From sequence record NC_028822.1: a stretch of DNA of 40,829 nt; one strand, 5' to 3'. Below are positions 13,282 through 16,232 of the stretch, piece by piece; positions within the stretch are counted from its first letter, which is position 1; each line of letters starts with the position of its first letter. The notes below the pieces were generated by a model. The model made no database searches. It was not told the DNA's origin and worked only from the letters and a program-made list of their open reading frames with translations. Origin of the DNA: Escherichia phage P483. The position numbers were made by a program, and so were the translations under genes.

Positions 13282-13872
13282 TTAACGAGACAGCAGACCA
13301 CCAGTGAAGGCATCACCATCAAGCATGTTGAAGTTACCGAAGTCCAGTTCGTACTCGGCACACTGCATCTTCGCTTCCTGTTCCTCTTCAGCCAACACAG
13401 CGTCAATCTCAGGTGCACCGAAGAACCTGTTGTTAAACTGACGGGCAGCTTTAGTGACAATCCAGGAGCGGAAGCATTCAGGCATCTCGTAGAACTCTCT
13501 CAGTTTAATGATGGTCACAGTGATAGGGTTCTGGAACACATCGGTTCCTGTAGTCCGGTCATAGACGTAACCACCACGGTTAACGTAAGCGGTCGCGCCT
13601 CCTTCAGACAGTACGGACAGGTAGTCAGACATATAGGGAATCAATCCGTTGAACACATCAGGCAGCAACTGTTGGCCTTCCTCAATGTTGAACGTCCAGC
13701 CCTTCGACTGAATCTGACGGTTAATCTTATTGAGAACTCGACGTGCGTTAGCGACATCGGCGTTAGCATCACCTTCCAAAGTGGAGACTGGCGGTTCACC
13801 GATAGAGGACAAGATGTCATTGACCGCAGCTAACTCTTCCCCAGTCTCTAGGGTTGTTTCATAGGAACGCAT
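13282..13872 (-). CDS. 11: Tail tubular protein A (T7 gp11-like)
   Basis: 196 aa, same length as T7 gp11 and highly similar as recalled. Confidence 0.9.
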
Positions 13873-13895
13873 GTTGGTATCCTCCTGTTGTAGCG

Positions 13896-13936
13896 AAAAA
13901 ACCCCTCAAGCACCCGCGAAGGCACCCAAGGGGTTT
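13896..13936 (-). terminator. Tphi-like intrinsic terminator downstream of capsid gene
   Basis: Minus-strand RNA CCCCUUGGGUGCC-UUCGC-GGGUGCUUGAGGGG followed by UUUUUU; G-U rich stem as in T7 Tphi. Confidence 0.8.
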
Positions 13937-13948
13937 CATATAGTTTAC

Positions 13949-15117
13949 TTACTGTGCAGCAGCCAGTTTCGCCGCCTTGTTAGCAGCACGGGTACGAGCG
14001 GCTTTCTGTTGTGGCGTTAGCTCTTGCTCAACTTCAGTAGGAGACTCAGTGTCCCCTACGAGTTTGCGAGAAGTTAAGCCGTTTTGAAAACCAGCGCGCC
14101 TACTGCTTCAGGACGCAGACCACCGTGACCCATCGCGTACTTAGCGATAATCTGGTCAGCCTGATAGTTAGCACGACGAGCACGTTCCAGCGCCATGTCT
14201 TTCAGCTTAACAGTACCAACGGCAGAGCGGTGGCAGAACAGGCCAACAACGTTATCCAGAGCAACTTTGGTATCACCAGAAGCGGTCTCAGGGAATGCGT
14301 GTTTCTGACCAGTCGGGTTCACACCCTCTTCCGGACGGTCATCACCAGCACCACCAACGGTCAGATGCGGAACTTCAATAACTTCGAAGCCCATGACGTT
14401 GCGGATAGAACCAGTAGACGGGTCAATCAGAGCCTGATAGTTTGCAGCGTTAGGCATCAGAGCAGCCAGAATCGCAGAGTAGTTATCAGGAGTGGTGTAG
14501 AAGGTACGGTCCGCAGACGGAACATAGTTCTTAGTCAGACGGGCACGAGCCAGAGTCAACTGTGCAATGATAGCCTGACCCAGCTTAACTTGGTCACCTT
14601 GCAGGTCAGCCGCAGCGCCTACTTCCAGAACACTTGCAGTACCCAAGCCAGCGATGTTCTCGTTGCTTGCAGCCGGAAGGTTACACAGTTTAGCCATTTC
14701 AGCCAGAACCGCGCCGTCAGCAGCCAGAGCCAGAGACTCACCCAACTGAGCGGTATATTCGGAACGCACGTCATAGTGGTTCATTGCGTCTTCGATGTCG
14801 TAAATCAGAACGTCAGCAGTCAGCAGACCGTCAATGTTAATGGTCTTCTCAGTATGCTTCATGTCTTTACGTTTGTCATCAAGGTTCTCACCCGGTTGCA
14901 GATAAGCAGCTTTGGTACGACCCAGCACAGGGAACTGCGCGGACTTACCGGACTGAATAGAACGCACGAGGTGTTTGTTCATAGTTACTGAGGTACGGGT
15001 AAATGCAGTCAGAACTTCACCGCCGAAGACCTTCAGGAACAGAGCCAGTTTATCACCAGCGCTCATGCCTTTACCTTGGTCCTTACCAATCTGTTGTCCA
15101 CCAGTCATGTTAGCCAT
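13949..15117 (-). CDS. 10: Minor capsid protein 10B, predicted by -1 ribosomal frameshift near the end of 10A
   Basis: The -1 frame is open for about 45 codons after the GGTTTTC heptamer (minus strand, about 14080-14090) and ends at TAA (13949-13951) just before the terminator, mirroring T7 10B. Confidence 0.5.
14074..15117 (-). CDS. 10: Major capsid protein 10A
   Basis: 347 aa; MANMTGGQQIGKDQGKG... closely matches T7 gp10A as recalled. Confidence 0.95.
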   Translation of the reverse strand: MANMTGGQQIGKDQGKGMSAGDKLALFLKVFGGEVLTAFTRTSVTMNKHLVRSIQSGKSAQFPVLGRTKAAYLQPGENLDDKRKDMKHTEKTINIDGLLTADVLIYDIEDAMNHYDVRSEYTAQLGESLALAADGAVLAEMAKLCNLPAASNENIAGLGTASVLEVGAAADLQGDQVKLGQAIIAQLTLARARLTKNYVPSADRTFYTTPDNYSAILAALMPNAANYQALIDPSTGSIRNVMGFEVIEVPHLTVGGAGDDRPEEGVNPTGQKHAFPETASGDTKVALDNVVGLFCHRSAVGTVKLKDMALERARRANYQADQIIAKYAMGHGGLRPEAVGALVFKTA

Positions 15118-15258
15118 GTTGAATCTCCTTCTGTTGATTTATGATAAAAGTTTAAATGTGAGGTACTACTTGAAACGAGTTGGTTCTCATTGTGTATCAC
15201 TCAAAGGAAACACGAAGGACTCGAACCTTCAGACCAGACCTCACTCAATCTGGATGTG

Positions 15259-15281
15259 TCTCCCAATAGTGAGTCGTATTA
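15259..15281 (-). promoter_or_regulatory. Phage RNAP promoter phi10
   Basis: Minus strand reads TAATACGACTCACTATTGGGAGA. Confidence 0.9.
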
Positions 15282-15284
15282 ATT

Positions 15285-16232
15285 TTAGAACTGACTGTAC
15301 ATCATCTTGCGCTCAACTTCCGCACGGAACTTACTGTCGTGACGATAGCGAGGGTCGGACATTGCAGCAATCATTTCAGCCTGTGACTCAAAGCCAGACT
15401 GTTTGGTGCGTACAGGTGCAGCAGGTACAGCACGTTTAGAGATACTACGGGCAGCAGGTTTACCGAAAGTCTTTGCACGGCTTGCACCAGCGAGATTAAC
15501 GATAGCTTTAACTGTTGCGAGGTCACGGTTCTCCAAGGCACTAATCAGAGACTCGGCAGCATCCGGGTTGGACACTTCGAGATGATTGTAGATTGCTTGG
15601 AACTGTGCTTCACCGCCAGCATACTCCATAACGGACTGAACATACTGTTCTACCAGTGCTTCCTGACCACGAATGTAAGAGTCAACAAAAGACTTGGAGT
15701 AACCAGCTTTGGCTAACTCTTCGTAAGACTCTTCGGACAGACCGTCCTCTCCGTATTCCTGTTGGATACGAACAATGGTTTCTTCTGACAGACCACGTTC
15801 AGCAGCCTGATTGACCATCTCTTCGAAACCTGCTTCGTGCTCTTCGAGTTGACTTGAGGCTTCATTCAGTTCGTCTGGAACGTCACCCACAGGTTCAAAC
15901 TCTTCGGAACCTTCTTCGTTGCCTTCGGAGTAATCAACCTCACCCTCTTCGGTCTCTTCAGATTCACCATCAGTGGAGATACGAATCTCAGTACGATTCT
16001 CATCCTCTTCACCAAACGGGTCTGGATTACCATAAGGGTCATCATTGCCAACTAACTCGATTGCATCATCGCCATCACGGGCAGCAACATCGAGTTCAAG
16101 CATAGCCTGTTCGTGGTCAGTAGGAGTAGACCCACCGACAACCGCAGAGTTCACACCGAAAGATGCGTAAACGTCAGCATTAGATTCACCGGACATATTG
16201 TATCTCCTTTGATAATAAAGTTTAGAACTCAA
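15285..16232 (-). CDS. 9: Capsid assembly scaffolding protein (T7 gp9-like)
   Basis: 315 aa, very acidic with Glu/Asp-rich stretches; position between portal and capsid. Confidence 0.85.
   Translation of the reverse strand: MSSKLYYQRRYNMSGESNADVYASFGVNSAVVGGSTPTDHEQAMLELDVAARDGDDAIELVGNDDPYGNPDPFGEEDENRTEIRISTDGESEETEEGEVDYSEGNEEGSEEFEPVGDVPDELNEASSQLEEHEAGFEEMVNQAAERGLSEETIVRIQQEYGEDGLSEESYEELAKAGYSKSFVDSYIRGQEALVEQYVQSVMEYAGGEAQFQAIYNHLEVSNPDAAESLISALENRDLATVKAIVNLAGASRAKTFGKPAARSISKRAVPAAPVRTKQSGFESQAEMIAAMSDPRYRHDSKFRAEVERKMMYSQF

Follow-up and report, generated by a model that had tools for sequence, protein, structure and literature searches.

Escherichia phage P483 (sequence record NC_028822.1) was analyzed as one stretch of 40,829 nucleotides, called the window below, to which the feature coordinates refer. 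The window seems to represent the whole genome of this phage, written in reverse orientation. The region of interest, on the minus strand, has the layout of a T7-like late operon, in which a promoter is followed by a 347-aa open reading frame (ORF), a strong hairpin with a T run, and a homologue of gene 11. Megablast places the region in the genus Berlinvirus, with the best matches (~95%) to Shigella phage A7, Escherichia phage P151, and Yersinia phage WW1, followed by ErnstBeyeler, P694, FE44, BA14, 285P, Kvp1, and Berlin. The genes and signals that frame the locus are the following.

15259-15281, minus strand: phi10-type phage RNA polymerase promoter, TAATACGACTCACTATTGGGAGA, upstream of gene 10.
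14074-15117, minus strand: gene 10A, major capsid protein, 347 aa, 36.85 kDa, with its stop codon TAA at 14076-14074.
13898-13937, minus strand: Tphi-like intrinsic terminator, with an 18-bp stem and then a U run.
13282-13872, minus strand: gene 11, tail tubular protein A, the next gene, which bounds the element and is annotated as gene 11 in relatives.

The 347-aa product is a Gp10A-like capsid protein (Pfam PF21703, E 1.9e-107, residues 61-343; also PHROG 267), and an identical protein is on record for Escherichia phage P483 (AJF40445.1). Its stop codon, a TAA on the minus strand at 14074-14076, lies exactly where the original prediction had placed it. The T7-like promoter is present in 11 near-identical copies, all on the minus strand between window positions 2954 and 38004, versus 0 expected. 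The promoter consensus, TAATACGACTCACTATTGGGAGA, carries T at -1 instead of A, and a promoter of identical sequence is annotated as phi10 in BA14. Between promoter and gene, the gene 10 leader can form a hairpin (GAAGGTTCGAGTCCTTC, 15206-15263, minus strand) similar to a tRNA T-arm; in BA14 this stretch of the leader is different. A tRNA at this position was considered and rejected, as a weak Rfam match to tRNA-Sec (E 0.44) is accompanied by no ARAGORN call. The stability of the leader fold is unremarkable (z -0.44).

Near the end of gene 10A, the sequence also holds the elements of a possible -1 extension.

14108-14110, minus strand: TGA that closes the -1 frame, 5 codons upstream of the heptamer.
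14086-14092, minus strand: slippery heptamer G_GTT_TTC, covering zero-frame Val343 and Phe344 and identical to the T7 gene 10 shift site.
13949-14086, minus strand: 10B-specific coding sequence, read in the -1 frame; its 45 codons begin with CAA at 14086-14084 and are followed by TAA at 13951-13949.

The zero frame ends with ...GCG CTG GTT TTC AAA ACG GCT TAA, which puts the heptamer three codons before the stop. Reading in the -1 frame from the GGT at 14092 yields GF-QNGLTSRKLVGDTESPTEVEQELTPQQKAARTRAANKAAKLAAAQ* (in full, GFQNGLTSRKLVGDTESPTEVEQELTPQQKAARTRAANKAAKLAAAQ), with the stop at 13951-13949. The original prediction gave this extension peptide exactly and described about 45 open codons past the 10A stop, but the count of 45 runs from the shift site, and 42 codons start at or after the one that overlaps the stop. 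It had also named GGTTTTC near the stop as a plausible slip site. The heptamer matches the T7 site in sequence and register, but it occupies 14092-14086 and thus reaches two bases beyond the end (14090) of the interval originally assigned. The expectation that the -1 frame would stop just before the Tphi-like hairpin was borne out, with a gap of 11 nt.

The -1 open frame spans 52 codons and includes no ATG, GTG, or TTG. Because this frame lacks a start codon and is bounded by the upstream TGA and the 10A stop, it can be expressed only via a shift inside an 11-codon window. By direct reading, the UUC preceded by U is the sole codon in this 11-codon stretch whose tRNA can re-pair at -1. The heptamer departs from the strict X_XXY_YYZ pattern, given that X_XX is G_GU and that only the A-site tRNA re-pairs fully. 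G_GU heptamers are a recognised intermediate class or variant of X_XXY_YYZ (PMC5009743).

Neither the heptamer nor the open frame stands out statistically. GGTTTTC occurs 4 times in the window versus 5.2 expected, and a 42-codon open frame has an estimated probability of ~0.14 in random sequence, computed as (61/64)^41. Likewise, at least 41 sense codons lie ahead at 26% of all positions in the genome. Since both elements are within chance, the significance of the arrangement comes from comparative evidence.

A further element begins just downstream of the heptamer. Its parts are as follows.

14026-14079, minus strand: two-tier RNA hairpin, a candidate frameshift stimulator, starting 6 nt 3' of the heptamer.
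14079-14070 with 14035-14026, minus strand: outer helix, 10 bp, GCUUAACUUC with GAAGUUGAGC, whose 5' arm holds the 10A stop.
5' internal loop of the same hairpin: 10 nt, UCGCAAACUC.
14059-14051 with 14045-14037, minus strand: inner helix, 9 bp, GUAGGGGAC with GUCUCCUAC, closed by the loop ACUGA.

When the RNA from heptamer to terminator was folded, the hairpin had a free energy of -23.6 kcal/mol and the 86-nt segment a z score of -3.0. Canonical -1 programmed frameshifting (PRF) sites have a stable structure 5-9 nt past the heptamer, and here such a structure is present with a 6-nt spacer, making it a candidate stimulator. Covariation was assessed with 13 distinct gap-free sequences from the Berlinvirus group, Yersinia phage fPS-59, Pectobacterium phage DU_PP_II, and Morganella phage MmP1. 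In this alignment, 98.8% of cells are paired, and 10 of the 19 pairs have changed on both sides, compared to 1-3 when the partner columns are slid. None of 500 shuffles reached the observed values, and RNAalifold returned the same two-tier structure unaided. The peptide encoded over the hairpin drifts among relatives (TSRKLVGDTESPT, MSRNLGADSTLAP, and MPRNLGVTSMVAS). The pairing is thus kept while the encoded peptide changes, which indicates that the constraint acts on the RNA.

At the equivalent position, the other lineages that bear a T7-type tail each form a strong hairpin of their own (z -1.4 to -3.6). Most T3-type phages likewise carry a hairpin after CCCAAAG, and some lineages with Ig-type extensions have no clear hairpin. 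Within the T7 clade an analogous fold is possible (91.8% paired), but it does no better than shuffles, as variation is too low. A scan of 13700-15400 found no Rfam 15 family for the hairpin. No description of it was found in the accessible literature, which on T7 stimulators consisted of a 2016 recoding review and a 2006 study by Slootweg, and it may be new. Inspection by eye found no pseudoknot partner for the internal loop UCGCA that is conserved across lineages, and pairing of the terminator CCCC with the G-run of the inner stem is not conserved across lineages either.

How the RNA 3' of the slip site contributes can be framed by what is known for T7. There, 10B is made by a -1 shift at GGTTTTC in about 10% of translations, and the heptamer alone in a foreign context yields <1% shifting versus about 10% natively (PMC1635266); thus, 3' context matters. 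The CCCC of the T7 terminator, >200 nt downstream, is reportedly involved in gene 10 frameshifting, an effect listed as unexplained (PMC5009743). In P483 the terminator CCCC is at 13933-13930, 152 nt after the heptamer, and by analogy it possibly plays a part here as well. We give even odds to the proposal that the two-tier hairpin stimulates the slip in this phage. With somewhat less confidence, we extend this role to the T7 group, with the covarying hairpin as the nearby 3' element that promotes gene 10 frameshifting. Such a role would account for the <1% shifting that the heptamer supports by itself.

A competing proposal, to which we assign somewhat less than an even chance, accepts the frameshift but gives the hairpin another role, in mRNA stability or processing or in pacing 10A termination, with the terminator region alone acting as stimulator. 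It agrees with the reviewed T7 data, which name the terminator CCCC only (PMC5009743), with the missing covariation signal in the T7 clade, and with those Ig-type lineages that lack a clear hairpin. However, the 6-nt spacing is that of known -1 stimulators, compensatory changes maintain the helix while the encoded peptide drifts, and comparable hairpins are found after the distinct slip sites that other lineages use. The comparative set shows that the RNA just past the slip site is constrained as a structure and not as a peptide, and this makes it a testable candidate for the poorly understood 3' stimulation of the T7 type.

The predicted 10B protein has 389 aa and a mass of 41.31 kDa, versus 347 aa and 36.85 kDa for 10A. 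A larger capsid form had been anticipated from the sequence, and the extension is indeed there, but the gain amounts to 42 aa and 4.46 kDa instead of ~5 kDa. Peptides that would distinguish 10B are YAMGHGGLRPEAVGALVFQNGLTSR, which spans the junction, and LVGDTESPTEVEQELTPQQK. Its tail matches PHROG 12582 (E 8.6e-14), and Pfam assigns Gp10A-like alone to the predicted protein, with no Big_2 domain. The most conserved part of the tail is encoded as follows.

13967-14020, minus strand: codons for the conserved tail core, LTPQQKAARTRAANKAAK.

We compared the locus with 80 capsid loci (from IMG/VR, GenBank relatives, and T7) and with 34 further loci found via the tail peptide. In each of the 33 loci that have a T7-type tail, the tail is encoded in the -1 frame after xGTTTTC or a comparable slip site. 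The core LTPxQKAARTRAANKA is unchanged in 25 distinct relatives. Of the 45 third-position columns in the alignment of the extension, 43 are variable, compared to 31 first-position and 27 second-position columns. The pooled pN/pS is 0.46 for the -1 frame versus 1.23 and 1.69 for the other two frames, values that somewhat favor the -1 frame because the alignment was guided by the -1 peptide. Furthermore, among the 80 loci, long homologous extensions in the -1 frame go together with a slip motif (xGTTTTC, CCCAAAG, GGTAAAG, or AAAAAAG), and relatives that end 10A with GTC TTC or other non-slippery codons have short, unrelated -1 frames only. Relatives with CCCAAAG, and some with GGTTTTC, carry an 83-92 aa Big_2 domain in place of the T7-type tail. 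A tblastn search with the tail counted 81 Berlinvirus-type records, a search in which the conserved C-terminal half was lost to the low-complexity filter. A pattern scan of viral contigs with TGGTTTTCNNNNNNGCTTAA was set aside, as the matches listed were mostly due to chance. Failure of the -1 frame to be conserved in relatives had been named as grounds for rejecting the prediction; the frame is conserved and under purifying selection.

Motifs like the tail core were also seen outside the capsid gene. A 108-kb viral contig (L236:64-729) encodes LTPQQKAAxTRAxNKAAK near the C-terminus of a 221-aa CxxC...CxxC protein, and in another contig (L237:517-972) the motif is close to the N-terminus of a 151-aa ORF located after one that is terminase-like. 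The motif may be a portable basic helix module.

These comparisons bear on whether the -1 open frame is translated at all. It could be a remnant that is never translated, or an ORF present by chance in the spacer that separates gene 10 from the terminator, with 10A as the only product. The length of the frame and the occurrence of one GGTTTTC are both within chance, as noted above, and 10B is unannotated in P483 and A7. In Yep-phi (L012), moreover, a GAG-to-TAG change 19 codons past the shift site truncates the tail before the conserved core. This change also breaks an outer-helix pair of the hairpin, and it represents either a genuine loss of the tail or a sequencing error; a stop within the extension is consistent with a dispensable tail. 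Against the leftover explanation stand the purifying selection, the invariance of a 16-residue core across genera, and the way in which the extension tracks slip sites over 80 loci. In addition, a 93%-identical product of phage Kvp1 has been observed by mass spectrometry (MS) (PMC2579914). We therefore regard a silent frame as very unlikely.

Equally improbable is that the same protein arises by transcriptional slippage, in which the phage RNA polymerase would drop one U in the T4 run and the -1 mRNA would be translated normally. The TTTT at the site is indeed a short homopolymer, and either route would give the same protein. However, a run of four residues is far below the length usual for polymerase slippage, which counts against this route. 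Relatives use CCCAAAG, GGTAAAG, and AAAAAAG, which are classic tRNA-Lys ribosomal slip sites, and the conserved hairpin 6 nt downstream fits a ribosomal mechanism. The recoding literature also treats the T7 site as a ribosomal one of the X_XXY_YYZ type (PMC5009743). Finally, a separate small "head protein" made by internal initiation or by termination-reinitiation after 10A would agree with the small ORF annotated in databases (PHROG 12582 and 20538 "head protein"; the 4.3-kDa "10B" of AP5), but its chances are negligible given the 52-codon frame free of ATG, GTG, and TTG and the recovery of Kvp1 extension peptides from a 43.6-kDa band (PMC2579914).

We put the probability at about 90% that gene 10 of P483 yields 10A plus a minor 10B product through a T7-type -1 ribosomal frameshift at G_GUU_UUC, on the grounds of the observed site, frame geometry, homology, and selection on the tail. 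Under this frameshifting model, most ribosomes would read GTT TTC AAA ACG GCT TAA and release 10A. A minority would slip back by one base with tRNA-Val and tRNA-Phe on G_GUU_UUC (14092-14086), where tRNA-Phe would re-pair perfectly (UUC to UUU) and tRNA-Val partly (GUU to GGU). The slipped ribosomes would then read 45 further codons in the -1 frame to complete 10B (389 aa, 41.3 kDa). The slip would probably be stimulated by the two-tier hairpin, which would sequester the 10A stop, possibly together with the Tphi-like terminator. The longer protein would co-assemble into the capsid and place its basic C-terminal tail on the surface. By analogy with T7 and Kvp1, 10B may be made at roughly 5-10% and built into virions. 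The MS table for A7 virions has no entry for the 10B tail, and because the database searched consisted of called ORFs alone, this absence is uninformative.

Several relatives depart from the P483 arrangement in ways that deserve mention. In BA14 (L001:1536-1554), the T7 heptamer has been lost (GGTTTTA), a dnaX-type A_AAA_AAG has been gained in frame one codon downstream, and the first outer-helix pair is broken (G to U); one slip site seems to have been exchanged naturally for another. In a further lineage, whose tail is of the T7 type (L023:2205-2211), G_GTA_AAG, a tRNA-Lys slip site, takes the place of G_GTT_TTC, again followed by its own strong hairpin. Elsewhere the extension itself differs. 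In IMGVR_UViG_3300034349_000001 (L240:241-2681; also L041, L060, and L239), the capsid gene ends with CTG GTT TTT ACT ... TAA, which includes a zero-frame G_GTT_TTT, and the -1 frame stays open for ~478 codons to just before gene 11. This extension contains a Big_2 domain (Pfam E 5e-11) that begins upstream of any start codon. Its distal ~383 aa have no Pfam, PHROG, or PDB match, and by eye they include GDSL/SGNH-like motifs (FEGDSLT, HCGTNNY, and DGTHSN). If made by frameshifting, the product would be an ~820-aa capsid fusion, perhaps one that displays an enzyme. Another two kinds of -1 extension (84-90 aa) are found behind xGTTTTC in L006, L017, L018, and L078, for example ...TDWSTLEVSYGTSG...TNTLYFKGIAVGETLVTV...; they have no Pfam match and are probably another beta-rich decoration domain.

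Annotation of 10B is uneven among these phages. Relatives that already annotate it are FE44 (as a joined CDS), BA14 (as a misc_feature that "may be translated via slippery sequence"), 285P, BSP161, and BP12A (with a "potential frame slippage site"). Among about 15 billion proteins in the collection searched, none is identical to the 389-aa 10B, which is thus unannotated for P483. It is likewise missing from the record of A7, the closest relative. A joined CDS for 10B should be added. The feature is an ordinary one for the T7-like group, of which the hairpin is the sole possibly new detail, and nothing new is learned about capsid frameshifting as such. Control of the 10B/10A ratio is nonetheless of practical value, since display vectors of the T7 family and engineered phages exploit the slip site.

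The closest parallel in overall design is T7 itself, whose 10A/10B arrangement the locus had been predicted to mirror. It does so in having the identical G_GUU_UUC, in the same register and likewise three codons ahead of the 10A stop, a PF21703 capsid protein, and a homologous tail. The predicted 10B is 73% identical to T7 10B, and the tail core LTPxQ(K/E)AARTRAANKA is homologous (22 of 33 residues identical, BLASTP E 3e-11). Both phages also have a Tphi-type terminator with CCCC directly after the extension, followed by gene 11. In T7 virions, 10B accounts for 5-10% and its C-terminus is an unstructured surface extension (PMC8923235). The P483 locus differs in that the tail after the shift has 45 residues versus 56 in T7, the linker sequences of the two tails are unrelated, and the distance from heptamer to CCCC is 152 nt versus 179 nt. 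The local hairpin differs in sequence as well and has covariation support here, whereas there is none within the T7 clade.

Kluyvera phage Kvp1, of the Berlinvirus group, is nearer in sequence. The predicted 10B of P483 is 93% identical to that of Kvp1 over 386 aa, through the junction ALVFQ, and the two phages share the GGTTTTC site, the hairpin architecture, and the terminator. In that phage, 10B was demonstrated by MALDI MS/MS as a 43.6-kDa band with extension-specific peptides, and the authors concluded that programmed -1 frameshifting occurs at TTTTCA (PMC2579914). They described no typical slip site, and the only structure they reported was a possible pseudoknot located 144 bp beyond the capsid gene; the local hairpin is not mentioned (PMC2579914). 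The authors of the AP5 study found no evidence of a pseudoknot. The C-terminus reads ...NKAAKLAAAQ in P483 and ...NKARKEAELAATE in Kvp1, and the variant shorter by 3 codons is common to A7, P694, and BP12A-type phages.

Phages of the T3 and phiYeO3-12 type also shift by -1 close to the 3' end of this capsid gene, the site being mostly followed by a hairpin that holds the 10A stop. They differ in using the slip site C_CCA_AAG (tRNA-Lys) and in having an 83-92 aa Big_2 Ig-like extension (Pfam E 1e-15 to 8e-20) that is unrelated to the basic tail described here. More distantly, E. coli dnaX likewise shows a -1 shift on the bacterial ribosome with a stem-loop a few nucleotides downstream of its site, A_AAA_AAG. 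In P483, by contrast, no obvious Shine-Dalgarno-like element is seen by eye upstream, and the heptamer is non-canonical, with G_GU instead of X_XX. The two systems also differ in outcome, as the dnaX shift leads to the shorter protein whereas the predicted shifted product of gene 10 is the longer one.
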